Source: Eubacteriales bacterium
GTDB taxonomy: Bacteria; Bacillota; Clostridia; Oscillospirales; CAG-272
Length of the DNA: 64,000 nucleotides
Reading direction: 5' to 3'
Assembly (NCBI GenBank): GCA_045576095.1
Contig: JAZNFP010000055.1
Coordinates: forward strand, 8,247 to 72,246
This document shows, piece after piece, positions 6,471 through 28,171 of the stretch. The notes beneath the pieces are model-generated. The model did not search any database. It was not told the origin of the DNA and saw only the letters and a list, made by a program, of their open reading frames with translations. Numbering within the stretch: the stretch's first letter is position 1; the number at the start of each line of letters is the position of its first letter. A program made the translations under genes and the position numbers.

Positions 6471-6546
6471 TGGAGCGGATTACGGGGCTCGAACCCGCCA
6501 CCTTCGCCTTGGCAAGGCGACGCTCTACCAAATGAGCTAAATCCGC
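6471..6546 (-). tRNA. tRNA-Gly (GCC)
   Basis: Hand-folded cloverleaf. Anticodon loop UUGCCAA, T-loop UUCGAGC, encoded CCA. Confidence 0.9.
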
Positions 6547-6549
6547 ATA

Positions 6550-6625
<76 letters not shown>

Positions 6626-6630
6626 GAAGA

Positions 6631-6707
6631 TGGCGACCCGGATGGGGCTCGAACCCACGACCTCCGCCGTGACAGGGCGGCGCTCTAACCAACTGAGCTA
6701 CCAGGCC
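6631..6707 (-). tRNA. tRNA-Asp (GUC)
   Basis: Hand-folded cloverleaf. Anticodon stem CCGCC/GGCGG with loop CUGUCAC, encoded CCA. Confidence 0.9.
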
Positions 6708-6728
6708 ATATGCTCGGGACGATCCTTT

Positions 6729-6804
6729 TGGTGGGAACAACAGGGCTCGAACCTATGACCCTCTGCTTGTAAGGCAGATGCTCTCCCAACTGAGCTATGC
6801 TCCC
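6729..6804 (-). tRNA. tRNA-Val (UAC)
   Basis: Hand-folded cloverleaf. Anticodon loop CUUACAA, encoded CCA. Confidence 0.9.
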
Positions 6805-13132: not shown

Positions 13133-13208
13133 GCCCCTGTAGCTCAGTTGGCAGAGCATTTGACTTTTAATCAAAGGGTCCGGAGTTCGAATCTCCGCAG
13201 GAGCACCA
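13133..13208 (+). tRNA. tRNA-Lys (UUU), integration target
   Basis: Hand-folded cloverleaf. Anticodon loop CUUUUAA, T-arm CGGAG-UUCGAAU-CUCCG, encoded CCA. One C3-A70 mismatch in the acceptor stem. Confidence 0.88.
13164..13208 (+). repeat. attL: 45-bp direct repeat (anticodon loop to CCA of tRNA-Lys)
   Basis: CTTTTAATCAAAGGGTCCGGAGTTCGAATCTCCGCAGGAGCACCA is identical to 27995-28039. Confidence 0.9.
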
Positions 13209-13341
13209 CGCCGTCAAACGACCGTTTGGCGGCTTTTTATCTGACATTTCGAGAACATTAACCGGGGAACAATCCCCGGCTTTTTTCATGGAAAATCACA
13301 CCCTTTGATTTTTGGGAAAAGGGTGTGCGAAAAAAGAGCAG

Positions 13342-14244
13342 CTATTTGCCGTCCGAGAATCGGTCAAGCGGAGAAAAATTAACAAATTCGGAAACGATCC
13401 GTCGGTTCGCAAGATGAAGATACCTTTTAACCATCTCGAGCGACGTATGACCGAGAATCATCTGAAGAGAATAAATATTACCGCCATTCTCAAGATACCG
13501 AGTTGCAAACGTATGGCGCAAAAGATGAGGGTGCAACCGTTCAATACCGGATGCCGCCTTCAAATCTCGAAAAAGCATCTTAACGCCCGCCTCCTTAAGA
13601 GGCGCAACACCGCCACCGGAAAGCTGCTTAAGAAAGAAAAACGGAGATCCGCAAGAAAGCGGAATCAGATCGGCATAAAGCTGCAGCGCATCCCGAGTCT
13701 GATTTCCAAAAGGTACGGCTCTTTGTTTGTTGCCTTTGCCATCAACGATCACGTAACGCTCGCGAATGTGCAAACGATTGACTCGGATCGTGACGAGCTC
13801 GTTAAGGCGAAGGCCGCCATCGAGATAAAGCGAAAGGATCGCTCGGTTACGCCGATCGAGAAATCCGTCGCCAGGGAAAACGTCAAAGAGCTGACGGATC
13901 TCTTCATCCGTAAGCGTATCAATCACGTCGCGCCGAGCCTTGGGAAGCTTAAAGCGCGAACAAATATCAACCTCAATATAAACGTTGTGGTATAACCAAT
14001 TCAAAAACGCACGAAGCTGCCGAACATAAGTTTGAATCGAAACCGACGAGAGCTCTCTCTCGATCAAATACAGATAATAAGAACGGCAGAGCTCAAAAGA
14101 CAAATCACTTACGTTAAGCTCAGGTGTTGCGAAACCCAAAAAATACCTCAACTGTACTTCGTAATTACGCAAGGTCTTTTGGCTATTACCCTTTATCCGT
14201 TGCTCAATCAAAAACTCTCGAACCGCGTCCTCAAGAGTCATCAT
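13342..14244 (-). CDS. int: tyrosine recombinase / phage-type integrase
   Basis: C-terminal catalytic signature HLLRHTFATRY...LGHTSLEMVKRYLH (H-x-x-R and Tyr). N-terminal SAM-like core-binding domain. Confidence 0.9.
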   Translation of the reverse strand: MMTLEDAVREFLIEQRIKGNSQKTLRNYEVQLRYFLGFATPELNVSDLSFELCRSYYLYLIERELSSVSIQTYVRQLRAFLNWLYHNVYIEVDICSRFKLPKARRDVIDTLTDEEIRQLFDVFPGDGFLDRRNRAILSLYLDGGLRLNELVTIRVNRLHIRERYVIVDGKGNKQRAVPFGNQTRDALQLYADLIPLSCGSPFFFLKQLSGGGVAPLKEAGVKMLFRDLKAASGIERLHPHLLRHTFATRYLENGGNIYSLQMILGHTSLEMVKRYLHLANRRIVSEFVNFSPLDRFSDGK

Positions 14245-15796
14245 CGGCCTCCGTTCCTCGACGTCCAAGCACCGCCTCAAGCTGACGAGTCTTCCGACGC
14301 TTAAGCTCACTGTAAAGCACAGGGCATCGAGGCGCTACAGCCTCGCCGGTACTGCTGTCGATCAATCGACCGTACTGACGAGTATGTGCGTCGTTGTCGT
14401 TAATCTCGCAAAGAGCTGCAGAGAGATCCTCGGAAAGATCTGCAGATTCATAGTCATCCGTAATCAAAGCGGAAAGCCGGGCAACGTTAGAATACATGGA
14501 AATGCTCACCTTCTTTTTATCGACGTTCTGCTGATACGTGCGAAGCACGCCGCCGACGTCTCCGGTGTGATCGTCGATCTTGCATTCTCGGATCCTTTGC
14601 CACCACCATATCAGCTCAGGCTCTTTTGCCTTCCGATCCTTCACAAACTGCAAAGACGTTGACGTTAAATAAGTACAAACAGATTTACGAATAGAAAGAA
14701 GCTTCTCAAGATGCGCAAGATCCGGGAACTCAAGATCGTCCGGTTTCGGCAAACCGTCAACGAGATCCTGCATGCCAGCATACAAACGTCGCTGGGTCTG
14801 AAACTCAAAATTGACAATCGTCGTCACCTCGGGGACAATTCCCTTGATGGCTTCCTCGAGATGAATGTTGTTGTCACTCTTGATATAATATTTCTCGCGA
14901 AGATCTCGGATCCTCCTTTGAAGCACCGGATCCTTGCCATACCGCAGATACCATTCAGAGCGGCCCCAAAGAATGCCGGAGCGGTAGCACCCAAGCTCGT
15001 AAGCACTCTCAAGGCAGAAGCGATCAAACGCCGAAATCAGCCCGTTTTGGCGCCAACGTTCAAAGAAAAATGACTTGTATTTAAGGCAAACAACCTCGTT
15101 TGTCTTATCATAGCAACGAAAAAACACGGTATGAGACTTACGATTTCCAAGCTGCAGCGTCTCTATCTTGAGCTTGTCCGAAAGCTTAAAAAACTTTACC
15201 CCGGAACGGAATTTTGATTTAACGCGCTTTTCAATAGCACAGTCGTGCAGCACTCGAGTCGGATCCGAAATACAGTTGGTATGAAAAGCATAATCAATAC
15301 GGTTTTCCATAACACAAGCAATCTGCAAATTGTTGCGTTCGATAAACTCACGAACAACTTCATACGATTCGCGTATCGCCTTCTTTACCCCCTCGAGGAC
15401 GAGATACCTCGAGCGAAGCTGCACCACCACCCGAGGCGTCTGCACGTTGGGTAGATTCGTGCAGATAAATATATCAAAATCCTCGCCCCGGGCCAAGCAG
15501 ATATCATAATTCGAAAAAGACCTGATCTCAAGGCAAAGCCCAAGATCCTCATAGCGAAGCTCACGGCTCCGATCTGTTTTCTTTTCAGCCTTCAGCTCAC
15601 GCAAACGATTGAGAAAGGACCAAAGTATGATCCATGCTTCCTCATCATCCGCATCGGGCTCCTTGAGATAAACCGAATAATAAAGAGTATCGATGTGATG
15701 CAGCACAGCCTTATCACGAACGTCAAACCATTCAAGACGCTCAAGATCAGACATTTCATTAAAGGCTTTCGTTTGCTTAACACTGATCTTAATCAT
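14231..15796 (-). CDS. Rep_trans-family rolling-circle replication initiator / MOBT-type relaxase
   Basis: LGNRKSHTVFFRCYDKT matches the G-x-R-x-S-x4-R-x-YDK motif of the Rep_trans family (pT181 RepC, filamentous phage Rep, Tn916 Orf20). 521 aa. Confidence 0.7.
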   Translation of the reverse strand: MIKISVKQTKAFNEMSDLERLEWFDVRDKAVLHHIDTLYYSVYLKEPDADDEEAWIILWSFLNRLRELKAEKKTDRSRELRYEDLGLCLEIRSFSNYDICLARGEDFDIFICTNLPNVQTPRVVVQLRSRYLVLEGVKKAIRESYEVVREFIERNNLQIACVMENRIDYAFHTNCISDPTRVLHDCAIEKRVKSKFRSGVKFFKLSDKLKIETLQLGNRKSHTVFFRCYDKTNEVVCLKYKSFFFERWRQNGLISAFDRFCLESAYELGCYRSGILWGRSEWYLRYGKDPVLQRRIRDLREKYYIKSDNNIHLEEAIKGIVPEVTTIVNFEFQTQRRLYAGMQDLVDGLPKPDDLEFPDLAHLEKLLSIRKSVCTYLTSTSLQFVKDRKAKEPELIWWWQRIRECKIDDHTGDVGGVLRTYQQNVDKKKVSISMYSNVARLSALITDDYESADLSEDLSAALCEINDNDAHTRQYGRLIDSSTGEAVAPRCPVLYSELKRRKTRQLEAVLGRRGTEADDDS

Positions 15797-18089
15797 TCGA
15801 GATATCCCTTCTATTGTTGATTTTCAAAAGCTTATCTCCAAAGCGGGAATGCTGGGCCTTGATCTCGTCGGGTGACGCGACAGGGCCCGAATACGTCCGC
15901 GACGTATCATGCTCCCACCAGGATTCGTATTCGTCCTTTTCTTCCTTGGTCAGATCCTCGCCCTCGACGAGCTTGGAATAGATCTTCGGATTGAACTTTG
16001 CCGCACGCTCGGCGAGCACGTCGGCATAGCAGTCGGTACCGTATCTGCCGGCACGGACCTTTTTGTATGCGACCGGGAGCTTAAGCAGCTCAGGCTCTGC
16101 ATCCATATCCTCGCCGTCCTTGAGATGCACGTCCAGCAGCTCAAAGCCGAACAGCTGCTGCTGTCGGCGGATACTCGGGTAAAAGCGGTCCATAAGGCGC
16201 ATGAGCGCGAACGTCGGAAGATCCACGTCGGCGCGGTTGACCGATCGGTCGGCGTAAAAGCCATGCCAAAGCGAGAGAAGAAGATCTCTTAAGAAGCGCT
16301 CGATCAAAAACAGATGATAGGTCGATCTCGGCCCGCTCGAGCCCTTGATGCAAAGAACGTTCGTCAGCTCAAGGACGTCAGCCTGAAGCGAGCTCGGGCG
16401 CTGCTCGTCCCCGATGTACTGCGCGTAAGGCGTATAGCACGCCGTCGAGGAATGCCGCTTGATCTTCAGACGATCGACGATGAGATCGTTCTTGACGTTC
16501 GACGTCGGCGCCGACTCCTTCAGATCCTTGTTGGTGAGGCTATTTCCGTAGTCCTTCCCCATCTCGGTATGACTCCAAATACCGAATTCCCACGCGCCGG
16601 CGGGAGAGGCGGGATCGACCGTCTTGCCAAGGCGGAGAAGATCAAAGTCAGAGACGTGCGCTCTCTCGGCCTCGCCTCGGGGATCGAAGGGCGCCGAACG
16701 GAAGTAATCAGAGGTCCACGCGGGGAACTTCCCCTTGTCAACGTACTTCGCATCGACCCGAAGCGAATAGGACGAAAAAACCGTACACTGCACGCGATAC
16801 ATGTACTGAAGCTCGGCGTAATCGACGATCCGATCGCGGAGATGCGAGACGGTAACGCCATCGGTGAATTTTCTTCTGCCGACGTAGCCGTAGAAAAGGG
16901 CGTCGTCCTCGCGAAGAAGCGAGGTAAAAAGGCTGCGTGTATATGCCTTGCCCTTGAGATCACCCATAAAATACATGATCCCGATCTGCTGATCAAGCAG
17001 GGCCCAGGGATAATCGGGGAACTCGGCGCGGATCTCGAGCATCGACTCCTTCTGTCGGTCGCGGTGCGCGTCCTGGAAGGAAAGAGTCAGGTTGACGTTC
17101 GTTTGCGTTTTGCCGACACCGACCTTGCCGGTAAGTAGAACCAAGAGCGGAAGCCGAGAAACAACGTCGCGAACGGCCTCCTCGAACGTATCAAGCCGCT
17201 TATAAGCAAGATACTGTCGGATCTTAACCGAAAGAACGTACCCGATCACAAGCCAGACCAAAAGCGGCAAAGCGTCGAAAGCTACGGTCAGATCAAGCGC
17301 AAGCTTATAGAGCTGCAGATAAAGGCTCTTGTAATCTGCCGACACCGAAAGATGCAAGAGCAGTGCCACCGCCTCGAGCCCGACCGTCAGAAGATTCGTT
17401 CCGGCAAAAAACAGAAGCGAGAGCCAAACGAGATAAGAGAGCGAGGCACGATACCACAGCTCGCGCACGATCAGCAAGATCGGGGAAAGCCCTCTGCCGA
17501 GCCACCTAAGGAATCGGACCGACCGCGTGCATTTTTCGAAATCGTCATTTTCATCGGTCACAGATCCGCGAATAAGAATCGTCCCGACAAGACAAAGCAG
17601 CAGCACCGGGAGCGCGAGCTGCGAGAGGTACATCGCCAGGATCACGACCTGAACGAAATATGCGAGGAAATGCTCCTTATGAAAGAGAAGCGAGAAGAAT
17701 CTCGACCAAAGGCCCTCGAGCTCCGAGGGGTCGATCGGGAGAAAGGGAACGTACGGAACGTCGGGAACGTCGTTGATGCGGATCGGCAGGCTCCCGGCGT
17801 CAAGATGCATCACGCACAAAAGATATTCCGCCACCGAGAGAAGCAAATCGTAGACCGCACCGCCGAGACGGTAGAAGGACCAGGTGCCGTTGAAGGCGAA
17901 ATACAAGGCGATAAGGACAAATACCGTCGGATAGGCGATCCTTTCAAAGAGGGAGCGGCGGCGCTTTGGAGGCTTTGGCTTCTTGATCTTATAACGCCGA
18001 AGCACCGTTCCGTCGTCAAGCCGGATTCGCTTTGCCGGGTGCAAATGCTTCAAAGGGTCACGACGAGACCGAAGACGGCGGAATAACAT
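15789..18089 (-). CDS. polytopic membrane P-loop NTPase (pI/Zot-like morphogenesis ATPase or TcpA/FtsK-like coupling protein)
   Basis: About six N-terminal TM helices, Walker A LLTGKVGVGKTQ, candidate Walker B YIGDEQ. The start abuts the stop of the 34-aa ORF, and its stop overlaps the Rep start by 8 nt. Confidence 0.65.
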   Translation of the reverse strand: MLFRRLRSRRDPLKHLHPAKRIRLDDGTVLRRYKIKKPKPPKRRRSLFERIAYPTVFVLIALYFAFNGTWSFYRLGGAVYDLLLSVAEYLLCVMHLDAGSLPIRINDVPDVPYVPFLPIDPSELEGLWSRFFSLLFHKEHFLAYFVQVVILAMYLSQLALPVLLLCLVGTILIRGSVTDENDDFEKCTRSVRFLRWLGRGLSPILLIVRELWYRASLSYLVWLSLLFFAGTNLLTVGLEAVALLLHLSVSADYKSLYLQLYKLALDLTVAFDALPLLVWLVIGYVLSVKIRQYLAYKRLDTFEEAVRDVVSRLPLLVLLTGKVGVGKTQTNVNLTLSFQDAHRDRQKESMLEIRAEFPDYPWALLDQQIGIMYFMGDLKGKAYTRSLFTSLLREDDALFYGYVGRRKFTDGVTVSHLRDRIVDYAELQYMYRVQCTVFSSYSLRVDAKYVDKGKFPAWTSDYFRSAPFDPRGEAERAHVSDFDLLRLGKTVDPASPAGAWEFGIWSHTEMGKDYGNSLTNKDLKESAPTSNVKNDLIVDRLKIKRHSSTACYTPYAQYIGDEQRPSSLQADVLELTNVLCIKGSSGPRSTYHLFLIERFLRDLLLSLWHGFYADRSVNRADVDLPTFALMRLMDRFYPSIRRQQQLFGFELLDVHLKDGEDMDAEPELLKLPVAYKKVRAGRYGTDCYADVLAERAAKFNPKIYSKLVEGEDLTKEEKDEYESWWEHDTSRTYSGPVASPDEIKAQHSRFGDKLLKINNRRDISND

Positions 18090-18194
18090 TTAGAGGACCT
18101 CCAAAAACGTTGTCGCGGCGTAGCCGCCAAAGAAGAGAGCGACGAGAAGCAGAAGAAACCGAAGGACGTAATATCCGAGCCTTAGCTTCTTCAT
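18090..18194 (-). CDS. 34-aa single-TM peptide (pVI-like position)
   Basis: MKKLRLGYYVLRFLLLLVALFFGGYAATTFLEVL. Its ATG overlaps the stop of the 628-aa gene (ATGA), and its stop abuts the ATPase ATG. Confidence 0.5.
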   Translation of the reverse strand: MKKLRLGYYVLRFLLLLVALFFGGYAATTFLEVL

Positions 18195-20077
18195 CCGCCG
18201 CCTCCGCGTCTGCCGAAGGCGTCTCGGATCATTGCAATCAGCTTCAGCACACAGATCACGATCAACACCAGAACCGTCGCTGCACCGATCAGAGCGGCGA
18301 TCTGAAGAAGCTCCTTCAGGGCTGCAAGAAGCTTCATCCACCAGGGATCATCGTCATCCTTAATCGGAGAAACCACTTCGGGCGACTGCGGCGCCTTAAT
18401 AAAGGTCATTGTCTCCATTACGACAGGAACGGTGTGAAGCTTCTCATTTTCACCGAACGCAATCGAGATGATCTTAAAATCGTCTACGATTGCATTCTCG
18501 CAATAATACGTGGTTTCGCTGAAACCCTCCCAATCCGGAAAAAGCAGTGCTTGATCATGCTCGCGCCAATACTCGGCGGAATGAACGAAATATTCCGTCT
18601 TGAGGTAATGAAAAACGACCAGGGTCTGATCCTCCAATGAGGAGACACATGAATTCATAAGAGAGCGAAAGGTTCCGAGTCCGTCATCATCCAACGCGTA
18701 CTGTGTTTTCAAATCCTCGTCGCTTTTCGTCCCGTCGCCTACAGACGCAATTTGAATAGCCGAAACGCTCACGGAATCGTCCGAAACCTTATGCCCCGTG
18801 AGCTTATAAAGCCATTCTACAAAGCCCGATATGGAATCTTCAAAGCTTTTGGTCTCAAAAAGATCGTTCGGAGTTTTCGTATAAGTATCTAAGGGGGTAC
18901 ATGAAGATGCACGAAGATAGTCACTCATGGCGAAAAGCTTATCGCCTGCTACAGAAGAAATAGACTCCTTCAGCTTGAGATAACGCTCAAGCACGTCGTC
19001 GTCCGACAGCTCGGGAAGCCCCTTATCATCGGTCTTAATCTGGTCAACCATGAACAAGAACGTTTCTTTCGCATCAGGGTGGGATGCCCACTTGCCGAAT
19101 GGCATTTTAGTGGGGCTTCCCAAAGCGCTAACGTTATAAGCAAACGGTGCTTCTGCCCCTTTTTTCCAAAGATTGAAAAAGCTTCCCTCAACGGTCAGAT
19201 CGTCACGGTCACATTCGGTCACGAGCATCGGTACGCCCTCGAGCAAGGAATACTGATACTTGATTTGATCAATCCGCTTCCAATCCTCGAGATACTCCGT
19301 CGGGATCAGAAACATCGCGGTATTGATCTGATCGTAATAACCAAGATTGGAGGTAGAATATCTGCTCGCCGTAAGATGAACGTCGAGATAAAGCTCGTCG
19401 GACAGGCTCCAGCCTTCCAGCTCGCCTTCATTGGAAAAGGTCAATTGAATATCCGAGTGCAAACTGCCGCCGGCAATGCTGCTTTGTTGGCCGGTGTACG
19501 CCACCGTCTTGGTCCTCAATGAGGACGAGGGATCGCGGTACGTAATCTCAAAGAGCCGCACCGTCAGCTCGTAGCTATCGCCGACGCGGAAGGACTCATA
19601 CTCGCTCTTGGTAAGATTGACACGGTACTTCACAAGCGTTTCGGTCGTTGAGACCTGCTTTGCGCTCTTGTAATAGGTTCTGCCTCCCGCCTCAAGCGTG
19701 AAGGCGGCCGAAAGGGCCGACTCGGTTCCGCCGGGAACGTAAACGTAAAAAAACACGTTGCATCCGTTTGTGCTCGTCTCGACGGTCGACGTGATCACCG
19801 AGGCGTCGGCGGTTCCGAGCGCCGCATTCTTCGGATAACTCTCAAGCAGCGTTGCCGCCGCTGCTTCCTCTCCCGCCTTGATCTCGGCTGCTGTTTTCCC
19901 CTCGGCATAGATCTCGGGGTCCACAAGATCTGCATAGACCGTCGTTTTGGAAAACGAGACGTGATCCCGGGGCGCCCCCGATTCCTCTGCACCCGCTGCC
20001 GTGCAGGGAAGAAAAGACAAAAAAAGCTGAAGCGCGAGCAGACATGCAACGGCGACAGCTTTCAGCTTTGTTTTCAT
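18191..20077 (-). CDS. large exported protein with C-terminal membrane anchor (pIII-like architecture)
   Basis: Signal peptide MKTKLKAVAVACLLALQLFLSFLPCTAAGA. C-terminal TM IAALIGAATVLVLIVICVL followed by a basic/Gly tail. RBS GGAGGAAAGGA. Confidence 0.65.
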   Translation of the reverse strand: MKTKLKAVAVACLLALQLFLSFLPCTAAGAEESGAPRDHVSFSKTTVYADLVDPEIYAEGKTAAEIKAGEEAAAATLLESYPKNAALGTADASVITSTVETSTNGCNVFFYVYVPGGTESALSAAFTLEAGGRTYYKSAKQVSTTETLVKYRVNLTKSEYESFRVGDSYELTVRLFEITYRDPSSSLRTKTVAYTGQQSSIAGGSLHSDIQLTFSNEGELEGWSLSDELYLDVHLTASRYSTSNLGYYDQINTAMFLIPTEYLEDWKRIDQIKYQYSLLEGVPMLVTECDRDDLTVEGSFFNLWKKGAEAPFAYNVSALGSPTKMPFGKWASHPDAKETFLFMVDQIKTDDKGLPELSDDDVLERYLKLKESISSVAGDKLFAMSDYLRASSCTPLDTYTKTPNDLFETKSFEDSISGFVEWLYKLTGHKVSDDSVSVSAIQIASVGDGTKSDEDLKTQYALDDDGLGTFRSLMNSCVSSLEDQTLVVFHYLKTEYFVHSAEYWREHDQALLFPDWEGFSETTYYCENAIVDDFKIISIAFGENEKLHTVPVVMETMTFIKAPQSPEVVSPIKDDDDPWWMKLLAALKELLQIAALIGAATVLVLIVICVLKLIAMIRDAFGRRGGGG

Positions 20078-20133
20078 TGTTTTGACTTCCTTTCCTCCCC
20101 CCCGACCGTAGCCGGGAGGGAGCATTTTTTGAA

Positions 20134-20646
20134 TTACTTGTAGAACGAAACGTCGATGGATGCACCCGAAATCACCGGAGTGATCTTGTCTGCAAAGAGT
20201 CCGAAGTCGTGACCTTCCTTAACCACGATCACAACATCATAGGTACCCGGCTCCGTGATCGCGATCGGGTCCTTGTCCGAACGCTTCACCTCTCCGTCTA
20301 CGACGAGACCGAGATAATAGGTGTTCGCCGAGCCGTGCTTGGCGCCGGTCAGCTTGACCGTTCCGATCGGAAGATACACAGAGGCATAAACGAGCTCAAC
20401 GTCCGTCTTGGCCTCGCCCTTGAGCTTGACGGCTCCGTTTTCGTCTACCGTCACCTCAAGCCCGCTCTCCTTGTCGGTTTGCGTCTCAAGCACTACGTCC
20501 TCGAGCGTGATCAGGTTCTTGTCGTTGCGCTCGCGCTTCACAAGCCCCGAGCCGAGCGAGGTTCCAATTCCAAGGAGCAGCACTCCCGCCACGACCGCAC
20601 ACACGATCGCGAGCGTCTTCTTGCTTTTTCCGCGTCTTCTGCTCAT
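20134..20646 (-). CDS. N-terminally anchored exported protein
   Basis: Basic N-terminus plus TM (TLAIVCAVVAGVLLLGIG), then a beta-rich ectodomain. Confidence 0.6.
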   Translation of the reverse strand: MSRRRGKSKKTLAIVCAVVAGVLLLGIGTSLGSGLVKRERNDKNLITLEDVVLETQTDKESGLEVTVDENGAVKLKGEAKTDVELVYASVYLPIGTVKLTGAKHGSANTYYLGLVVDGEVKRSDKDPIAITEPGTYDVVIVVKEGHDFGLFADKITPVISGASIDVSFYK

Positions 20647-20661
20647 GCTTTACTCCTCCTC

Positions 20662-21249
20662 TCAATAAAGATACTTGTTCCCCGTGAACTGAATCGCGCG
20701 GGGCGCATAAATCGTCTGCTCAACGTCAGGGCCCTTGTCCTGATAATAGATCACGAGGCAAACCGCATCGGCAGGGATCGGAACCATGACGGAATCGCTC
20801 GTGCTCTGACGAAGCTCGTTATAGCCGATCGCGTAGGATACCTCTTCCCCGAGCTCCGGCATCTCGCTCAGAAATGCAAACGCCATGTAACGATCGCCGT
20901 TCGCATCCTTGCTGGCGGAAAGAGTAACCTTGGTGAAAACACAGTCGGTCAGGTCAATGAAGGCAACCTTGTTTTCCTCGTCGACAATGTACTTGTGCGC
21001 GTCACCGTCGTTATCGGGATCGGCGTCGCGGAGAAAATAGTTCGGGATCACGCCCTCGGCTGCCTTCAGCTCCTCAACCGGATAGTCGTAGGCGGCGAAC
21101 AGAGGGTTCGTCAGACTCGGCTTCTGATCCTGATCCGCACCGCCCGGATTGAACACCGCCGGGTTGATTGACGCCAGCGTTCCGATCAAGAGCAGCAGCG
21201 ACACGATCGAGAGCGCAAGCGCAAGTGTCGTTTTCGTTTTGCTTTTCAT
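20662..21249 (-). CDS. N-terminally anchored exported protein
   Basis: MKSKTKTTLALALSIVSLLLLIGTLA signal/anchor, acidic ectodomain. Confidence 0.6.
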   Translation of the reverse strand: MKSKTKTTLALALSIVSLLLLIGTLASINPAVFNPGGADQDQKPSLTNPLFAAYDYPVEELKAAEGVIPNYFLRDADPDNDGDAHKYIVDEENKVAFIDLTDCVFTKVTLSASKDANGDRYMAFAFLSEMPELGEEVSYAIGYNELRQSTSDSVMVPIPADAVCLVIYYQDKGPDVEQTIYAPRAIQFTGNKYLY

Positions 21250-21318
21250 TTTTTGCTCCTTGTTGATACTCCTATTGTTTTATTTTCCTCACTGCCCTGC
21301 AGTGCCGTGAGCTTTTTA

Positions 21319-22356
21319 TCAAAAGATGATGCTCGTTTGGTTAAGGCTCAGAGACGTCGCAGCCTCAACGATCATCGACGAGTCAAAGCAGAGATAGAAA
21401 TTGTGAACCTGTGTTTCAAATGCTGTCTTCACAGTGACCTCGATGCAGATCGCACGTCCGTTTCCGAACGCCTTAACCGCACGGTTGAACGCATTGACGG
21501 TTTCAAGATAATTCTCCGCATTTTCCTCAGACTCCGGAATCAACACACTCATGTTCGAACGGTTGAAGACGTCCGCAAACGTGACGTCGTCAATAGAAAT
21601 CGGATCGGTTGGCGTGTGGCCCACGTCGATGTAATCCCGAACAACGTTCGCAAATTCATCCGTCGGGTAAAAGCGAACCGTCGCCGTTGCATCGGCTCCG
21701 ATTGTGTAATGTTCGCTTGTAAGAACCGTGAAATGGATTTTCTCTTCATAAACAGACGACATGTGCGTGCTAAACACGATCGGATTCACGACGAAATCCG
21801 TCCCCGAATAAACCAAGCTATCCGACTGAAAGATCGTAGTCACCTTGGACGGCCGAATGTAAGTTTCCTCAATCTTTTGGCGGAAATCGACCGTGCAGCT
21901 CGCCTTCGCATTCGAATTGCTGTTCGCAAAAACGGTTATCACGATCTGCTCCCCAAACGATGCGAGCAGCTCAACGCTGCAGCTCGTTCCGTTCGGAGTC
22001 AGACGGATGAATTCACCGACGTCGGTATGCGCTTTGGCAAAGCTCGAGGAAGAATCCTTCCAGACTGCCGTCCAGGTCAGTCCTGCCGCCTCGGCTCCCG
22101 AGGGCGTAACGGTTGCAAGAAGTGTCACCACTCCGTCCCGCGGCTCTTCCGCCATCAGGCTCATCAACGTGCTCTCGTGGATCCCACCGATCGAAAGCTC
22201 CCCGGCGCCGGGCGACTCGTTTCCGCTGCCGTTCCATCTCAAGACGACACGCGCCGTTCCCACCGAAAAAATCGCGGCGCACAGAAGAACCGATGCGATC
22301 AGGATCGCCCACTTCTTCCTCGAGCTCTGTTCATTGATTCTGTTCATTTTTTTCAC
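21319..22356 (-). CDS. N-terminally anchored exported protein (Ig-like repeat suspected)
   Basis: Anchor WAILIASVLLCAAIFSV. The TVTPSGAEAAGLTWTAVW segment resembles bacterial Ig-like (Big_2) modules. Confidence 0.6.
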   Translation of the reverse strand: MKKMNRINEQSSRKKWAILIASVLLCAAIFSVGTARVVLRWNGSGNESPGAGELSIGGIHESTLMSLMAEEPRDGVVTLLATVTPSGAEAAGLTWTAVWKDSSSSFAKAHTDVGEFIRLTPNGTSCSVELLASFGEQIVITVFANSNSNAKASCTVDFRQKIEETYIRPSKVTTIFQSDSLVYSGTDFVVNPIVFSTHMSSVYEEKIHFTVLTSEHYTIGADATATVRFYPTDEFANVVRDYIDVGHTPTDPISIDDVTFADVFNRSNMSVLIPESEENAENYLETVNAFNRAVKAFGNGRAICIEVTVKTAFETQVHNFYLCFDSSMIVEAATSLSLNQTSIIF

Positions 22357-22359
22357 TCC

Positions 22360-22545
22360 TTAAAAATAAACGTGATCGGGATTCAATACAATCCCGGATA
22401 CCGGCACGATGCCCGGGTCCGTCACCTCAGGCGTTGTCTGTGAGGATCCGCCCGGATCGCTCCTTGGCAGCTCGATCGACGAGAACGTGCCAAGCAAGAG
22501 CAGGATGGCGAAAATCACCGCCAAAATCGCTATACCTTTTTTCAT
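22360..22545 (-). CDS. 61-aa single-TM protein (candidate coat-like/small membrane protein)
   Basis: MKKGIAILAVIFAILLLLGTF followed by a Pro/Thr-rich tail. 3-nt gap to the next gene. Confidence 0.5.
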   Translation of the reverse strand: MKKGIAILAVIFAILLLLGTFSSIELPRSDPGGSSQTTPEVTDPGIVPVSGIVLNPDHVYF

Positions 22546-22648
22546 TTTCTCACCATTTCTTTTCCGAGAAAGCCTCAAACGGTCCCCCGGGCTTTTTGAT
22601 CTGACCTAAACTCGGAAGGAAAGTAGAACACCCGCGCCGATGAAACGC

Positions 22649-22930
22649 TTAGCTCGGCAAAGGGGCTTTTTCTTTTTTGCGCTCCTCGGGATCGAGGGCC
22701 AGTGTTGCGCCGACATAAAGCCAGAGCGCAAAGACATCATCATGAAAATCCTCAAAAGAGGTGTATCCGAGTAAAGACGGCAAACCGATGAAGGTGCGGC
22801 CGACGGCATCAAAATCGTGCAGCCGCATCACAAGACGCTTCACACGAAGCTTAAGCTTTTCATCCTCGGATAACTTTTGTATCAGCTCAAGCTCACGCTC
22901 CCACGCGGGGGCTTTTCTTTTTGCCTTCAT
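22649..22930 (-). CDS. hypothetical protein (93 aa)
   Basis: Coding-like composition. C-terminal hydrophobic helix FALWLYVGATLAL followed by the basic tail EERKKEK. Confidence 0.45.
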   Translation of the reverse strand: MKAKRKAPAWERELELIQKLSEDEKLKLRVKRLVMRLHDFDAVGRTFIGLPSLLGYTSFEDFHDDVFALWLYVGATLALDPEERKKEKAPLPS

Positions 22931-22954
22931 GATCCGCCTCCTCAGGGTGGAGGC

Positions 22955-23269
22955 TTAATCGTTGTCTGAGAATAGCCCTAAGAATTTACCATCCTTCCAA
23001 TTACCGAATTTCCGTCGCATATGGGACAAATAGGAATCAACAGCTACACGATCCGATACACGTTTACCATCAACCTTACCATACTCTTCGCGAATCGACC
23101 GCAATGTACTTTGACTTATTCTTTTCGGTTTGCGAAAATTGGTATCGTAAAATTTACCGCCCACATATGAAGGCCCCAAATACCGAGGCTTGGAACTCGA
23201 GCTTTTACGCGACTTCTTCTGCATCGCCGTTTTGTACCCGAACTTAAACATCTGCGAAAGTTTAGACAT
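22955..23269 (-). CDS. hypothetical highly basic protein (104 aa)
   Basis: Lys/Arg/Ser-rich N-terminal half, consistent with nucleic-acid binding. No family recognised. Confidence 0.45.
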   Translation of the reverse strand: MSKLSQMFKFGYKTAMQKKSRKSSSSKPRYLGPSYVGGKFYDTNFRKPKRISQSTLRSIREEYGKVDGKRVSDRVAVDSYLSHMRRKFGNWKDGKFLGLFSDND

Positions 23270-23296
23270 TTTATTATCTCCTTTTGAAAATTAAAT

Positions 23297-23656
23297 TCAT
23301 CCCAGCACCTCACACAAGGGGCATTGCTCACACATCTCGTCCAGCTCGTCCTGGTCCCGGCACTCTAAAGAATGCCGGCAGAGATCTTCACAGATCGCGC
23401 ACTTCACCTTCTCTGTAAAATCAAAGGTGATCGAGCTGATCGACGAAGAATGGTTGCACCGAAAAATCTTCTGACGAACAAATTTATACGGTTCGCGAAC
23501 ATGATAAAAGCGATCCTCACCTCTCAAACCACGTCCGTCATAGGTTACCAAAACGGTACCCCCTTTTTCATGTGGAGAAACAAATTCAATACGATCAATA
23601 TTGATCAAAGCGACGTCGCCACCATCAAAATTCGTCAGCTCAATAAAGTTACTCAT
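23297..23656 (-). CDS. hypothetical protein with C-terminal Cys cluster
   Basis: CAICEDLC...CRDQ...CEQCPLC suggests a Zn-binding tail. Overlaps its upstream neighbour by 8 nt. Confidence 0.5.
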   Translation of the reverse strand: MSNFIELTNFDGGDVALINIDRIEFVSPHEKGGTVLVTYDGRGLRGEDRFYHVREPYKFVRQKIFRCNHSSSISSITFDFTEKVKCAICEDLCRHSLECRDQDELDEMCEQCPLCEVLG

Positions 23657-24026
23657 CGGGAGCTAAGTACCTCCTATGATAACGTTCTTCGCATACTGCG
23701 CAGATACCGTCAAGCTCTTCCGGCGTTAAACGTCCATCCGCAACCGCCTTTGTATTCGCGCAAGATATGCACTGCTTGGCGCGCTCGGCGCTCTCATCGC
23801 TCACAGGAATCGGAACAAAAACTACCCCGCCGCCAACGTGAGACGCGACAACCGTCGAGGTAAAAGAATCTGCGATGATCGTACAAAGAGCAAGAATATC
23901 GACCTGCAGCTGCCCGGGAACATAATTCAATACAGACGCCAAGCGTTGCAGATCTATACCATCAAAACGACGTTCCAAGGCTCCGGCAAGCCGTTTTGCA
24001 TTATCAAACACACTTAAGTCAATCAT
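23649..24026 (-). CDS. hypothetical protein with CxxC pairs
   Basis: CISC...CAVC motif. Overlaps its upstream neighbour (ATGA). Confidence 0.5.
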   Translation of the reverse strand: MIDLSVFDNAKRLAGALERRFDGIDLQRLASVLNYVPGQLQVDILALCTIIADSFTSTVVASHVGGGVVFVPIPVSDESAERAKQCISCANTKAVADGRLTPEELDGICAVCEERYHRRYLAPDE

Positions 24027-24952
24027 GCGCTTGCCTCCTTCTGTTCGGCATATACGATCACAGCCGGGCGCTTCTTCTGAAGATAATCGATGATCTCGCT
24101 CATCGCATTCCCGCCGGGGTTCCAGTGGGAACGGTAACCGGTTTGCTCAAGCAAATGCCAATGACGGTCGATGCCCTCCTTGTTATACGTTGCCTTCGGG
24201 ACCTCAACCTCATCTACGATCACCGAATCACCGTTGCCGAAATCGTAACGGTAATAGGTCATACCAAGCTGCGGCACCCGGAGCCATACGCCCCAGGCGC
24301 GGTAATTTTCAAGCCATGCCTTGCGCCTCTTCTCGTTCGGAAGCACCTCGGTCGTAGCTCGTCCGCCCTTCGTCTCGGGTTCACACTCGATCACGATCGG
24401 CTGACGCTGCTCGGGAGCTGCGGGAGCTGCTTGCTCCTTTGGCTCGGGCTTTTCCTTTTTCGGCTCAAGCGATGCCTTATATGCCCGGATCTCCTTGACT
24501 GTCATTTTTGGGGTAATATCACGCCGATGCTCAAGGTCCATCGGCAGGATCTCAACGAGCTGCGAATGAGAATAGCCCTCGTATTCGGGCTTGAGCACCG
24601 GCAGAGCCGATTCCTTATCGTTGATGCAAAATGCCTCATACGCTGAAATCGCCGCATAAAGCGCGCTTTTCTTCAGCTTAAATTCTTGCTCAGCCCAGGC
24701 GAAGAGCTCGCGCGAACAGCCGTCTTCGAGATACACGTAATACATGTATGCAGACTTTGCAGTGAAAAGGATCTTACCGATCAGAAGATAATTCAGCTTT
24801 ACCGCCTGAACGGCAGTACGCAAAGACTTTACGATCATCGCGGATCGGGTGTAAATATCTGCCCGAAGACTTGCCTCGGGCATTTTCCAGACGTCTGGAA
24901 AATCGTAATCCTTTGCGTATTCTTCCTTCAGGCGCTCACGATAGGTTGCCAT
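24023..24952 (-). CDS. hypothetical phage/plasmid-type protein (DUF3102-like N-terminal domain suspected)
   Basis: 309 aa. Helical N-domain, Pro/Glu/Lys linker, C-terminal globular domain. The family call is from memory only. Confidence 0.5.
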   Translation of the reverse strand: MATYRERLKEEYAKDYDFPDVWKMPEASLRADIYTRSAMIVKSLRTAVQAVKLNYLLIGKILFTAKSAYMYYVYLEDGCSRELFAWAEQEFKLKKSALYAAISAYEAFCINDKESALPVLKPEYEGYSHSQLVEILPMDLEHRRDITPKMTVKEIRAYKASLEPKKEKPEPKEQAAPAAPEQRQPIVIECEPETKGGRATTEVLPNEKRRKAWLENYRAWGVWLRVPQLGMTYYRYDFGNGDSVIVDEVEVPKATYNKEGIDRHWHLLEQTGYRSHWNPGGNAMSEIIDYLQKKRPAVIVYAEQKEASA

Positions 24953-24956
24953 TATC

Positions 24957-25457
24957 TCATGCCTCCGACGCCTGGAACATCAAATCAATGACGTTGGAAG
25001 GATTGACGTGGATCTCAGCAATCTCGTCCGTGCCGTAGTCATTCACAAAGGTCATGACACTGATACCGTGCAGGAAAAAATCGCGTACAAAATTTGCCTT
25101 AAAGTCCGCGAGGCTGCATCCAAGCAGCTTCTCAACGTCGCCGACACGAATACTGTAAGCGTTGTCATAACGGCCAACGTGTACGCCGTTTTTATAACCC
25201 GGATGATTCGGGTCGTTTGCAAATTTGTTGTCCTGCAGATCTCGAATCGGCACCCACATGCGAGATCGTCCTCGAAAGCCGCCGCCGGAGATCACCTGTT
25301 CAAACTCGCTCTCCTGACTCGGTGCCGAATCATACGTCGGCTTCTCAACATTGAGATTCTGAACGTACAGGATCAGTCGCTCATACGGAACCTTCTCGTC
25401 GGTCCCGCGCTTCGTGTACTTCCCTGCTGCTACCTCAAACTTTACTAATACTTCCAT
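24957..25457 (-). CDS. hypothetical protein, first gene of the element's long operon
   Basis: 166 aa with coding-like composition. Divergent from the XRE regulator across an AT-rich 290-bp region. Confidence 0.5.
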   Translation of the reverse strand: MEVLVKFEVAAGKYTKRGTDEKVPYERLILYVQNLNVEKPTYDSAPSQESEFEQVISGGGFRGRSRMWVPIRDLQDNKFANDPNHPGYKNGVHVGRYDNAYSIRVGDVEKLLGCSLADFKANFVRDFFLHGISVMTFVNDYGTDEIAEIHVNPSNVIDLMFQASEA

Positions 25458-25777
25458 GAATAGATCCTCCTGCGTTTATCGGCGCCCCGAATTTTATCTC
25501 GAAATCGGAATTTCCATTTTCACTTGCTCAAACTTCGGCACAGGTGGCGCATTGGCAACCCGAACCTTCTCAAGCAAAGCTCGACACTTACGCCCAATCG
25601 TTCCGGATGAAGAACAGTCTTTTAACATTTGAGCCTCACATAAGTTTCTTATTCGGAAACATTATAGCAATAAAAAAGTACACTGTCAAGATATTTGATC
25701 AAAAAAATTCCATTTAGGAAACTTGAATTGAAATTAAATAGCGTAAAATGTATAATTTTTTTCAAGGAGGTGATAGC

Positions 25778-26158
25778 TTGAAAAACTTAAAGATTGCACG
25801 AAAAGCCATGCAATTGACGCAAGAAGAGCTTGGTGAAAAAATAAACATCAGAAAAAGCGCTATATCAAAATACGAAAACGGCAAAGCAGAACCAAGCCAA
25901 ACAATTCTAATTCAACTATCACAAGTATTAAATGTGTCAGTGGATTATTTGCTCGGTCTCGAACCTTCAAGCACGCAAAACGAATTTGCTCTTTTGCCAA
26001 TCGAAAGAGCTCTAATTGAAAACTTCCGATCGAGCTCAACCGAAATAAAAAAAGCAACGCTAAGAATACTCAATGTAAAAGAAACAAGCAAAAACAAAAA
26101 AACGCTTGGCGAAGATATTGCCGAAGCATTTCAAAAGCAATCGGTACATCAAAATTAA
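25778..26158 (+). CDS. XRE-family HTH regulator (cI-like position)
   Basis: LTQEELGEKINIRKSAISKYENGKAEPSQTILIQLSQVLNVSVDYLLG. TTG start 7 nt after AAGGAGG. Confidence 0.85.
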   Translation: MKNLKIARKAMQLTQEELGEKINIRKSAISKYENGKAEPSQTILIQLSQVLNVSVDYLLGLEPSSTQNEFALLPIERALIENFRSSSTEIKKATLRILNVKETSKNKKTLGEDIAEAFQKQSVHQN

Positions 26159-26206
26159 CATTCTGCACCGAATATTCATCTATATCGTTAAATAAGGAGA
26201 ATCATC

Positions 26207-26953
26207 ATGGCAAAAACATGTGCGATCTGCGGCAAGGGTTCAGGTATCTATCCACTTTGCATTTCTTGCTTCAAGCTTAGAGATGCCGGTGAAATAGAAA
26301 AATGCGAAAAGTGCGGAGCCTGGCACTATACTAACGAATCTTGCCAATGCAAAACACCAGAAAAAGATTCGTTCAAAACCGCAGAAAATAAACGCCATGA
26401 AGAGCAAGAACCCGATGACTATGAACATTCTAAAAACGAATGCATCATATGTCAAGAACCGAGCGAAAATCACTATTTTTGCAAATCATGTTACTACAAA
26501 TACAAAAATAAATCCCTACTAATCAGAATAACAAAATGCAAAAATGTAGAATTATTAGACGACTCTTATGAAGGAGCATACAAATGCAAGGACGGACACA
26601 TCGTAAAAAGTAAATCCGAGCGGGATATTGACAACTACTTTTTCGATCACGATATCGCTCATGCATACGAAAAACCGTTACACATTGATGAAGAAACACT
26701 ACACCCCGATTTTTATCTCCCAAAATTAAACATCTACTTAGAACATTGGGGTTATGGAAAATCGAACAAAGAATATCAAGAAATGAAAAATTACAAAATT
26801 CCTCTTTACAAAAAAGCAGGAATAACTCTAATCTGCACCTACGAATCAAGCGACGCAAAGGATATAGAAAGCGCACTAGATAAAAAATTAAGCACTTACA
26901 AAAAAGGACAAATCAACTTTTTAGAAAAAGAAGATATTTTCCCAGCGAAATAA
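26207..26953 (+). CDS. triple Zn-ribbon protein with C-terminal PD-(D/E)xK (Vsr/restriction-endonuclease-like) domain
   Basis: CAIC...CISC, CEKC...CQC and CIIC...CKSC motifs. These are followed by SKSERDIDNYF...YEKPL...HPDFYLPKLNIYLEHWGY, an E...PD...E-x-W pattern of REase-like nucleases. GC is far below the genome average. Confidence 0.6.
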   Translation: MAKTCAICGKGSGIYPLCISCFKLRDAGEIEKCEKCGAWHYTNESCQCKTPEKDSFKTAENKRHEEQEPDDYEHSKNECIICQEPSENHYFCKSCYYKYKNKSLLIRITKCKNVELLDDSYEGAYKCKDGHIVKSKSERDIDNYFFDHDIAHAYEKPLHIDEETLHPDFYLPKLNIYLEHWGYGKSNKEYQEMKNYKIPLYKKAGITLICTYESSDAKDIESALDKKLSTYKKGQINFLEKEDIFPAK

Positions 26954-26965
26954 ATGAATAAAAAT

Positions 26966-27003
26966 AAACGAAGCAGATCCGCTTTTGCGGAGCTGCTTCG
27001 TTC
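26966..27003 (+). terminator. terminator after the nuclease gene
   Basis: Hairpin CGAAGCAG-ATCCGCTTTTGCGGAG-CTGCTTCG followed by TTCG. Confidence 0.5.
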
Positions 27004-27089
27004 GTCCCCATTACCTTCGGAACGCCTGACAAAAGAGGCCTTCCGTGATTTTTAATGCACGACAGACTGCACGGAAGGAGGTGAATTGA

Positions 27090-27179
27090 ATGCTTGGATA
27101 TCGTATTCACGAATGGTTGATTACATACGGCAATATGATAATTGACCAGATTGTGATGATTCTCATCGCAATCACTTAA
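27090..27179 (+). CDS. 29-aa hydrophobic peptide (type I toxin-like candidate)
   Basis: GGAGGTG RBS 6 nt upstream. Peptide MLGYRIHEWLITYGNMIIDQIVMILIAIT. The upstream hairpin includes part of the SD, and a strong terminator follows. Confidence 0.35.
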   Translation: MLGYRIHEWLITYGNMIIDQIVMILIAIT

Positions 27180-27195
27180 CCACACTCCCGGCAGT

Positions 27196-27230
27196 CTGCC
27201 GTGGTTATTTTACCACGGCAGGTCTCTTTT
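27196..27230 (+). terminator. rho-independent terminator
   Basis: CTGCCGTGG-TTATTTTA-CCACGGCAG followed by GTCTCTTTTG. Confidence 0.7.
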
Positions 27231-27780
27231 GTCAAGACTTTGCACGCAAAGTCCCTCTACCGCCCCTCCACCAACGAATAAATTTTTATCCATTATTTTT
27301 TTCGTAGACAAACTCTCTACGAAACTTTTTTAAGGCGATAGAACCGCATGAGGGCTGGAAAAACAGAGGAATTATGTAGGGGGCGTGTTACAGACCCGCC
27401 CCCCTTGCCCGGAAAAACCGAAAATTTGACCACTCAGGCCGGGCCGCCTGAGTAGATCCATGCGGCGGAGATCCATCGGCGCCGCGCGCTGGCGCTTGCC
27501 GCGAGCGCCGATGGAGAACGTCCGCACGGCGGGGCAAGGTCTCGCCGGGAGACTTGCCGAGCTCAGCGAGACGGCTCCTCGATCCGGCGAGGAGCCTCTG
27601 AGCTCGTCTGCGGGCTCTGCGGAGCCTCGCTCACTTGCCAACCCTTCCCACAGGCGCGAACGAGGGAGCGCCTATGGAAAGCGTTGACAACCGCGATCTC
27701 TCGATGCACCGGCGAGACGTAGAGAAAAACAAAATTGTTTTTCGAAGGAAGGAACGCCCGCCACGAGGCGGGGAAAGCAA

Positions 27781-27978
27781 TCAGACAGCGAGCTGCAGCG
27801 ACGTCTGCCCACACTCCAGGCAGACACCTTCCCACGTGCATGCGCTGCATTCATGCGCCGACCAAAAGGACCGATCCTGCGCGAGCCGATGCTGCCGTTT
27901 CGGCGATTGGCTTTGGAAATAGGCAATCTTCGCCATATGATCCGCGTTGATGCGTGCTATAACCTCCGACTTACTCAT
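27781..27978 (-). CDS. 65-aa Zn-ribbon protein adjacent to attR
   Basis: Strong RBS (AGGAGG, 6-nt spacer, ATG). MSKSEVIARINADHMAKIAYF...HECSACTWEGVCLECGQ carries CxxC-x6-CxxC. Confidence 0.6.
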   Translation of the reverse strand: MSKSEVIARINADHMAKIAYFQSQSPKRQHRLAQDRSFWSAHECSACTWEGVCLECGQTSLQLAV

Positions 27979-27994
27979 TTGAAACCTCCTATTT

Positions 27995-28039
27995 CTTTTA
28001 ATCAAAGGGTCCGGAGTTCGAATCTCCGCAGGAGCACCA
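27995..28039 (+). repeat. attR: 45-bp direct repeat (displaced 3' portion of tRNA-Lys)
   Basis: Identical to 13164-13208, but without the 5' half of the tRNA. Confidence 0.9.
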
Positions 28040-28171
28040 AAAAAGAACGTTGCGTTGCAACGGTCTTTTTTGCCGAAGGAGCTTCGAGACGGGCGATTTC
28101 CGACTTGACAAAAACCGAAAAATCCTGTATCCTTATAGTAGTATAGAATCCGCATGGGAGGTGAACCCTGG

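Follow-up and report, generated by a model that had tools for sequence, protein, structure and literature searches.

Small integrative elements that carry neither the genes of a tailed phage nor those of a conjugative apparatus raise the question of how, and as what, they move between cells. One such element lies in a 64,000-nucleotide (nt) stretch of DNA from a Eubacteriales bacterium (GTDB lineage Bacteria; Bacillota; Clostridia; Oscillospirales; CAG-272), positions 8,247 to 72,246 of contig JAZNFP010000055.1 in assembly GCA_045576095.1; this whole stretch is the window, and all coordinates below refer to it. The element fills 13164-28039 and was first noticed in a reading of the sequence alone, made without database searches, which described an inovirus-like gene order and offered a minimal mobilisable or conjugative element as the alternative. 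We find here a small temperate replicon of a large undescribed family, integrated and intact; its gene logic is that of an integrative filamentous phage, and homology-based tests of membership in the Tubulavirales fail. Judged from its sequence and that of its relatives, the chances stand about even that it represents a new lineage of inovirus-like, membrane-assembled, non-lytic temperate elements.

The ends of the element are sharply defined. The intact tRNA-Lys(UUU) gene occupies 13133-13208 on the plus strand (ARAGORN and Rfam), and its 3' 45 nt (13164-13208), the left attachment (attL) copy, recur at 27995-28039 on the same strand as the attR copy. As the sequence-only reading had stated, the two copies are identical; the repeat is perfect over exactly 45 nt and can be extended by zero bases at either end, and by our own arithmetic chance would produce such a repeat ~1e-18 times in 64 kb. 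The element so delimited is 14.8 kb long and has a GC content of 50.1% inside the repeats, against 59% on each flank, and the flanks are ordinary host genes, a MetH-type methionine synthase on the left and an ABC ATPase on the right. Abutting the intact tRNA gene, again as first described, is a tyrosine integrase gene (13342-14244, minus strand; 300 aa from its ATG in an open reading frame (ORF) that reaches 14310; PF00589, 1.5e-33; phrog_1, 5e-51), which places a tyrosine recombinase domain beside an attachment repeat that restores the 3' end of a tRNA, and the same integrase family adjoins tRNA-Lys(UUU) in five relatives (loci L001, L006, L008, L009 and L174). It is thus a site-specific integrative element that enters the 3' end of tRNA-Lys(UUU) by means of a tyrosine recombinase. 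An empty tRNA-Lys site (attB), which the first reading had proposed to seek in related genomes, was not found among them: the one recorded contig with the ABC-gene flank, 1.9 kb long, stops within the repeat, and no database record has the same MetH flank, for which the best relatives are Clostridia bacterium proteins from metagenome-assembled genomes (MAGs) with identities of at most 83%. Assembly GCA_052848795.1 (L177, L175) has a MetH homologue 67% identical to that of the window and carries a family element of its own on another contig, with an ATPase 65% identical; neither tRNA-Lys nor an element lies downstream of its metH, so host synteny is not kept there.

Two relatives bear on whether such elements move. 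Both ends of the closely related contig L173 (12,791 bp) consist of an identical 24-nt piece of a tRNA T-arm and acceptor stem that does not come from tRNA-Lys, and L173 therefore shows the same cargo with a different integrase and attachment site; the contig may run from attL to attR or may be a circle. Its ATPase (91% identity), p309 (95%), p125 (93%) and p93 (90%) are close to those of the window, whereas p644 (41%), p345 (38%), p72 (54%), p195 (59%), p170 (69%) and the integrase (49%) are divergent; the exported proteins diverge far faster than the ATPase, p309, p125 and p93, as would be expected of a role in host recognition. Terminal-overlap tests on ~170 contigs yielded a single clear circle, the SPAdes contig L117 (14,576 bp), whose ends overlap by 55 bp; contig L125 runs colinearly across the junction. 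L117 holds the core genes, a Rep_OBD+SF3 (superfamily 3 helicase) Rep, a DDE integrase and otherwise small genes only. Mobility of the family is supported by the perfect attachment repeat, the drop in GC content, the attachment tRNA shared by five relatives, the alternative attachment site of L173 and the circular L117. Contigs of ~11.3 kb that carry a Rep gene were also considered as complete circles and rejected, L085 and L086 being overlapping pieces of a longer element.

Sixteen of the 18 element genes share the minus strand. Beyond the integrase there are 15 such genes, joined with junctions of -14, -8, -8, -4, -4 or 0 to 70 nt and mostly preceded by GGAGG ribosome-binding sites, which confirms the tightly packed run noticed at the outset. 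Following minus-strand transcription, the order is attR, a 65-aa ORF, a conserved non-coding block, a further non-coding stretch of ~550 nt that contains a terminator-like hairpin, the opposite-strand genes for p248 and a helix-turn-helix (HTH_3) regulator, a switch region, p166, p309, p125, p119, p104, p93, p72, p345, p195, p170, p644, p34, a 766-aa ATPase, a 521-aa Rep-like protein, the integrase and attL with its tRNA. The sequence-only reading had missed the 65-aa ORF (27781-27978) and the non-coding block (27505-27780). As that reading had also maintained, no ORF of the element has a Pfam, PHROG or NCBIfam match to a capsid, terminase, portal, tail or lysin/lysis family; ten element proteins returned zero matches in NCBIfam, and none of the small or exported ORFs matches a major coat, pIII or pVI family in Pfam or PHROG. 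The gene content of the element and its family includes no type IV secretion system (T4SS) or VirB4 and, in most members, no relaxase, and the element has one ATPase gene only. Since no capsid genes can be recognised, and since a defence-like nuclease (p248) is carried as in many satellites, the element might be a satellite or defective remnant for which a helper phage supplies the particles, but this we consider very improbable: every ORF is intact, the attachment repeats are perfect, no helper prophage genes are adjacent, and the large conserved membrane and ATPase module has no counterpart in known satellites.

The membrane proteins are distributed as first described. Transmembrane (TM) segments lie at the N-terminus of p72, p345, p195 and p170, p34 has one, and the ATPase has about four at its N-terminus. 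The protein p72 (22360-22578, minus strand, as are all the following; 61 aa from its ATG) is small and has one TM segment; its N-terminus is basic, its C-terminus acidic and rich in proline. It is followed by three exported proteins with N-terminal anchors, p345 (21319-22356; cluster C3, conserved family-wide, C3 profile 3e-30), p195 (20662-21249) and p170 (20134-20646; phrog_35108, 3.6e-4), and then by p644 (18191-20125; cluster C2), in which a signal peptide precedes a large ectodomain, a C-terminal TM segment and a short basic tail, and which is a candidate adsorption or spike protein. The last of the series, p34 (18090-18194), is a 34-aa single-TM peptide that abuts the start of the ATPase gene and is conserved throughout the family. 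Upstream of these lie six soluble proteins (p93, p104, p119, p125, p309 and p166; 22649-25457), among which p104 is very basic (25 K/R), p119 belongs to family C14 and p309 to phrog_15077.

The ATPase (15789-18089, minus strand) is a protein of 766 aa in which a polytopic N-terminal domain of ~310 aa with the four or so TM helices precedes a P-loop domain that has GKVGVGKT as its Walker A motif and YIGDEQR as a Walker B-like one. It could be assigned to no family of Pfam, PHROG, NCBIfam or PADLOC. The Zot family (PF05707) was matched neither by the window ATPase at E<=0.1 nor by 65 diverse family members at E<=10, and the Pfam matches of these 65 members at E<=10 were scattered and of generic P-loop type; FtsK_SpoIIIE was matched weakly by 1 of the 65 (5.9e-4). 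Profiles built from 20 and from 122 sequences found nothing meaningful among PDB sequences. When the 122-sequence profile was aligned with hhalign to a real Zot, 16 Walker A residues aligned and nothing else; against ORF3 of Acholeplasma phage L2 the P-loop alone aligned, and against TcpA of pCW3 there was no ATPase alignment, the templates in all three cases being single sequences, which makes these negatives weak. A first AlphaFold2 model from the 20-sequence alignment was poor (pLDDT 65) and uninformative in Foldseek searches of PDB and BFVD. The model from the 122-sequence alignment has a pLDDT of 92.7 and a pTM of 0.85, and yet Foldseek found nothing significant for it in PDB and no Zot structure among its matches; the top ones, none of them significant, were HerA (4d2i; E 0.095, prob 0.51) and the packaging NTPase B204 of STIV2 (prob 0.5-0.6). 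Both of these lie in the FtsK-HerA superfamily, which also includes the filamentous-phage protein pI (PMC6813254); together with the FtsK match, such faint signals would be consistent with a place for the ATPase there, although membership is not established. As profile, sequence and structure searches all failed to assign it, the ATPase represents a new family, and on the sequence evidence it would found a large and uncharacterised one: an exhaustive HMMER search returned at least 1,053 ATPase clusters at 50% identity with E<=1e-3, 535 of them with E<=1e-30, and the length is 700-800 aa in nearly all of the 150 clusters listed.

The family is spread through at least 96 GTDB species, nearly all of them known from MAGs of Clostridia in the gut or rumen (Christensenellales and allies), with one cultured carrier, Pumilibacter intestinalis CLA-AA-M10. 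The ATPase also occurs in Acholeplasmatales, Anaeroplasmataceae and Erysipelotrichaceae bins, the taxon labels of metagenomic bins being unreliable, and a scan of metagenomes gave more than 413 matches, mainly from the human gut. Literature searches turned up no description of elements with this ATPase. Clustering of the predicted proteins of 84 loci defines a core that consists of C14 (p119-related), C3 (p345), C5 or C25, C2 or C7 (p644), a TM peptide of ~30 aa and the ATPase. C25 holds the homologues of p170, and C5 is an N-anchored protein of ~195 aa that takes the same position and for which no similarity to either p195 or p170 could be detected. Ahead of the large protein, with its signal peptide and its anchor at the C-terminus, stand two or three exported proteins anchored at the N-terminus; in 48 of 72 loci the ~30-aa peptide, with the consensus MKKxFKxILKVLLGIVVLxVxGYFIYTG, directly adjoins the ATPase start codon or overlaps it. 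An exported module protein of some relatives (L021:4870-6564 and other C34 proteins) contains Listeria-Bacteroides (Flg_new) repeats (3e-33), which suggests binding to cell surfaces.

Around this core the genes for replication and integration vary. The Rep-like protein of the window (14231-15796, minus strand; 521 aa) is a putative rolling-circle initiator that matches Rep_trans (PF02486) with E 0.012 and 15.6 bits, below the cut-off of 29.6 bits, and phrog_20614 ('replication initiation') with 3.8e-6. Its profile matched nothing among PDB sequences. More than 193 homologues exist, none of them annotated; 9 of 26 match Rep_trans (best 1e-5), and in hhalign the invariant motifs NRIDYAFH and RxYxKxxE align to RIDxAF and R-I-Y-D-K of canonical Rep_trans (E 3.5e-4, prob 37%). 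To judge from these alignments the protein is a divergent member of the Rep_trans superfamily, and the earlier label of a Rep_trans-type rolling-circle protein can be kept in that looser sense, though not as a match above the Pfam threshold. The closest relatives of the window element instead carry a canonical Rep_trans protein of 417 aa at the far end, which matches the replicative RepSTK1 structure 4CIJ (5e-27). A PF23343 'ORF2/G2P' HUH Rep of the filamentous-phage type directly follows the ATPase in most family members (46 loci), and a Rep_OBD+SF3-helicase Rep is found in 13. For integration, 34 loci have an IS30-like rve DDE integrase and other members use tyrosine integrases. Replication and integration modules are exchanged around a conserved membrane core, and by their sequence families all of the replication modules appear to be of the rolling-circle replication (RCR) type.

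This variation speaks against the second proposal of the sequence-only reading, in which the ATPase would be a coupling protein of the TcpA/Orf21 type and the 521-aa protein a MOBT (Rep_trans) relaxase, so that the whole would be an integrative mobilisable element (IME) like Tn916, with a T4SS acting in trans. In the window copy the ATPase does lie directly upstream of the Rep_trans-like gene, and a Rep_trans protein beside an ATPase recalls orf20 and orf21 of Tn916. The adjacency is not kept, however: in L001, L173, L174 and L175 the integrase directly follows the ATPase and the canonical, replicative Rep_trans gene is at the opposite end, while the 46 more distant loci have the G2P-type Rep instead. 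Distant relatives have Reps that are not relaxases, and there is no VirB4. The FtsK/TcpA-like character once assigned to the ATPase does not hold either, given the single weak FtsK_SpoIIIE match and the empty comparison with pCW3 TcpA, and five to six conserved exported or membrane proteins would be superfluous for an IME. We regard this explanation as highly unlikely, and with it the analogy to Tn916 orf21-orf20 falls.

The case for a virus begins with the comparison to known filamentous phages. Integrative filamentous phages likewise have a small genome packed in one direction, in which a large C-anchored protein is followed by a small TM protein and a membrane-associated ATPase. Cryptic inoviruses swap RCR Reps and integrases and encode single-TM proteins of 30-90 aa (Roux et al. 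2019, PMC6813254), and the family resembles them in its exchange of Reps (Rep_trans, G2P, HUH+SF3), in its tyrosine and DDE integrases and in its single-TM proteins of that length; p34 and p72 both lie within the range that Roux et al. (2019) give for structural proteins with a single TM domain, and the window element combines a rolling-circle (Rep_trans-like) protein, a genome of 14.8 kb and genes largely on one strand, as expected of an inovirus. The most direct link is bajarodino virus 74 (PQ006121.1), a circular 10.2-kb Inoviridae record with a Zot of 245 aa and a typical coat-like protein of 69 aa. Its DDE integrase matches those of the 34 loci with E values of 1e-84 to 1e-61, its Rep (C13 type) matches the family with 1e-9 to 1e-14 and its p309-like gene with 1e-12, so that the N-terminal domain of p309 is also present in an inovirus gene. 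Its genes run from a 557-aa C-anchored protein through a 96-aa two-TM protein to Zot, Rep, the p309-like gene and the integrase, which is the order of the family with Zot standing where the family has its ATPase of 720 aa. The Ff-like order that the sequence-only reading saw in the window is thus conserved family-wide and is the same in bajarodino virus 74, but the ATPase in it is not detectably Zot or pI and no coat family goes with it. A virus-like logic is further argued by the lack of T4SS, VirB4 and relaxase, the lack of capsid and terminase, the interchangeable RCR Reps and the swapping integrases.

Several observations weigh against placing the element with the filamentous phages. Nothing homologous to Zot/pI, pIII or any inovirus coat family was detected, and no convincing major coat protein was found; both small TM proteins have a charge polarity inverted relative to Ff pVIII. 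The family ATPase, at 720-770 aa, is 2-3 times larger than pI and has its polytopic membrane domain at the N-terminus, and the structural matches to HerA fall short of significance (E 0.095). The genomes, at 12-15 kb, also differ. Known inoviruses of gut Clostridiales encode a stand-alone Zot together with a coat protein that can be recognised as such (Sugimoto et al. 2021, PMC8530359), unlike the elements of the ATPase family, which have neither. Finally, the ATPase is present in just 2 of 2.9 million IMG/VR contigs (scans with two different ATPase alignments gave the identical two) and in 1 of 50,697 GenBank phage records.

This near absence from virus collections is one reason to consider a non-viral explanation. 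Elements of the pSAM2 type, the actinomycete integrative and conjugative elements (AICEs), combine an integrase and an RCR Rep with a single membrane ATPase that has an N-terminal TM domain and with small membrane proteins. The family element shares the tRNA integration, the RCR-type Rep, the one membrane ATPase and the small membrane proteins, and could then be an integrative rolling-circle plasmid with a novel, minimal, contact-dependent transfer system, its ATPase pumping DNA as TraB does and its anchored proteins serving as mating adhesins or spread proteins. The weak affinities of the ATPase to the FtsK-HerA superfamily (the single FtsK_SpoIIIE match) and the Listeria-Bacteroides surface repeats in an exported protein of some relatives would both fit. 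In contrast to AICEs, Tn916 and pCW3, however, the family has no FtsK_SpoIIIE domain at family level, no TcpA similarity and no VirB4, and most members are without a relaxase; TraB transfer is known in mycelial actinomycetes only, and none of 72,556 plasmid records (PLSDB) contains the ATPase. Nor would a plasmid explain the modules and the gene order held in common with a Zot-encoding inovirus, or the G2P-type and SF3-helicase Reps, which are typical of single-stranded DNA (ssDNA) viruses. We therefore think such a plasmid doubtful, while giving it real weight.

The lack of a recognisable coat protein would also fit a pleomorphic, lipid-enveloped virus that leaves the cell by budding (Plasmavirus L2 or pleolipovirus type), with p644 as a spike or fusion protein, the small TM proteins as internal membrane proteins and the ATPase as a virion NTPase. 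Acholeplasma phage L2 (NC_001447; Plasmaviridae) is temperate, ~12 kb long and without capsid genes, and its synteny with the family is striking: envelope proteins with signal peptide and C-terminal anchor, a small TM protein, a TM-linked P-loop ATPase (ORF3), a tyrosine integrase and attP. In close relatives of the window element the integrase comes right after the ATPase, as in L2, and the ATPase occurs in the Acholeplasmatales, Anaeroplasmataceae and Erysipelotrichaceae bins, whose labels, as noted, are unreliable. When all L2 proteins were compared by phmmer with 1,661 proteins of the family loci, the integrase was the sole match. The ATPase of L2 has 312 aa and is unrelated by profile beyond the P-loop, DnaA-box origins take the place of an RCR Rep in L2, and the host of L2 lacks a cell wall, whereas most hosts of the family are walled Clostridia in which enveloped budding would be mechanistically hard. 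This makes a budding virus, in our judgement, improbable. Dehalococcoides IME1, a capsid-less integrative element for which filamentous or budding viruses have been proposed (bioRxiv 10.64898/2026.09.15.751708), is similar in its tyrosine recombinase, membrane-protein module, ATPase and divergent repressor, and differs in its length (21-28 kb), its detectable pI-like ATPase, its primase-helicase in place of RCR Reps and its restriction to Chloroflexota.

At the attR side lie the regulatory and non-coding features. The switch region (25642-25756) contains two sigma-70 promoters, one directed at the long operon (25689-25661, minus strand; 12/12, with an extended -10 (TG)) and a divergent one for the regulator gene (25728-25756, plus strand; 11/12), both bracketed by a flanking 17-nt inverted repeat, a layout that resembles that of a lysogeny switch. 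The regulator (25748-26158, plus strand), of the Cro/CI type, is divergent from the operon and matches PF01381 (3.8e-19) and the repressors phrog_8 and phrog_3. Next to it, p248 (26207-26953, plus strand) combines CxxC zinc ribbons with a PD-(D/E)xK nuclease and resembles candidate defence genes (PADLOC PDC-S69, 1.5e-24; HEAT_CxxC_PD-DEXK, 7e-12). Both genes form a patch of 34-38% GC within the 50% GC element, which makes the earlier label of cargo fair for p248, but at least 13 distant loci likewise have a p248 homologue next to the ATPase module. In L175 the homologue is adjoined by a HicAB toxin-antitoxin pair.

Farther toward attR, an ultra-conserved non-coding block of 275 nt (27505-27780, minus strand) is 96-99% identical to L173 (231-509), although the flanking genes are 38-95% identical and Rep and integrase differ. 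As a single strand the coding strand folds with -106.8 kcal/mol (z = -7.1), and an exact-sequence search of IMG/VR gave no match to the block. Because the window and L173 have different Reps but a near-identical ATPase, p309 and p125, we infer that the block acts in cis independently of Rep; the candidate roles are those of a complementary-strand (minus-strand) origin and of a packaging signal. The gene for the Cys-rich 65-aa protein (HxC...CxxCG), on the minus strand at 27781-27978, is the first one inside attR; its product matches no family and is 42% identical to that of the first ORF in L173.

If the element is indeed an inovirus-like one, its life cycle might run as follows. The HTH repressor would keep the strong operon promoter off; upon induction, the integrase would cut out a circle, which Rep would nick and from which it would drive rolling-circle synthesis. 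The displaced single strand, with the structured block at 27505-27780, may then be passed to a membrane complex of the ATPase and p34 and exported through the envelope without lysis, coated or accompanied by membrane-inserted proteins in a particle. In such a scheme p644 would be the variable protein of host recognition and adsorption, the p248 nuclease might serve an accessory defence or exclusion function, and assembly would follow the logic of the filamentous-phage proteins pIII, pVI and pI, with an ATPase and structural proteins that lack detectable homology to those of the Tubulavirales. The sequences themselves show where the element integrates, what it encodes, which parts are conserved, that modules are swapped and that one circular form exists; the export, the type of particle and the single-stranded state of the DNA are what we infer.

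Taken further, and with a probability that we would put somewhat short of even, the family may be an abundant, unrecognised lineage, at the level of a family or order, of non-tailed temperate viruses in Clostridia of the human and animal gut, in which a new polytopic P-loop ATPase with its translationally coupled 30-aa subunit replaces Zot/pI, which exchanges modules with true inoviruses and which may link these with plasmaviruses. Should particles be made, a whole lineage would have been missed by gut viromics. No curated profile library names the ATPase, and almost no phages are known for its hosts, the Christensenellales and related uncultured Clostridia, which are taxa associated with health. 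With a fold that is confidently modelled and has no match in PDB, the ATPase would offer a new way of coupling DNA export to the membrane; if transfer is conjugation-like instead, the element would represent a new minimal system of DNA transfer in Firmicutes. The cultured carrier P. intestinalis CLA-AA-M10 makes the question of particles testable.

Three minor features of the locus may be added. Within the non-coding DNA near the right end, an imperfect inverted repeat at 27027-27234 (67-nt arms, 72% complementary, with a 74-nt spacer) overlaps a strong terminator-like hairpin (27194-27223), and since close relatives carry the canonical Rep_trans gene at this place, the repeat may mark the scar of a deletion or replacement. 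Four clustered tRNA genes (Gly, Phe, Asp and Val; 6471-6804, minus strand), which lie in the host DNA 6.3 kb upstream of the element, are ordinary context. Directly past attR, at 28038-28072, lies the bidirectional terminator that belongs to the tRNA-Lys gene, a hairpin with a perfect 16-nt stem between T/A runs, which integration displaced 14.8 kb from its tRNA.

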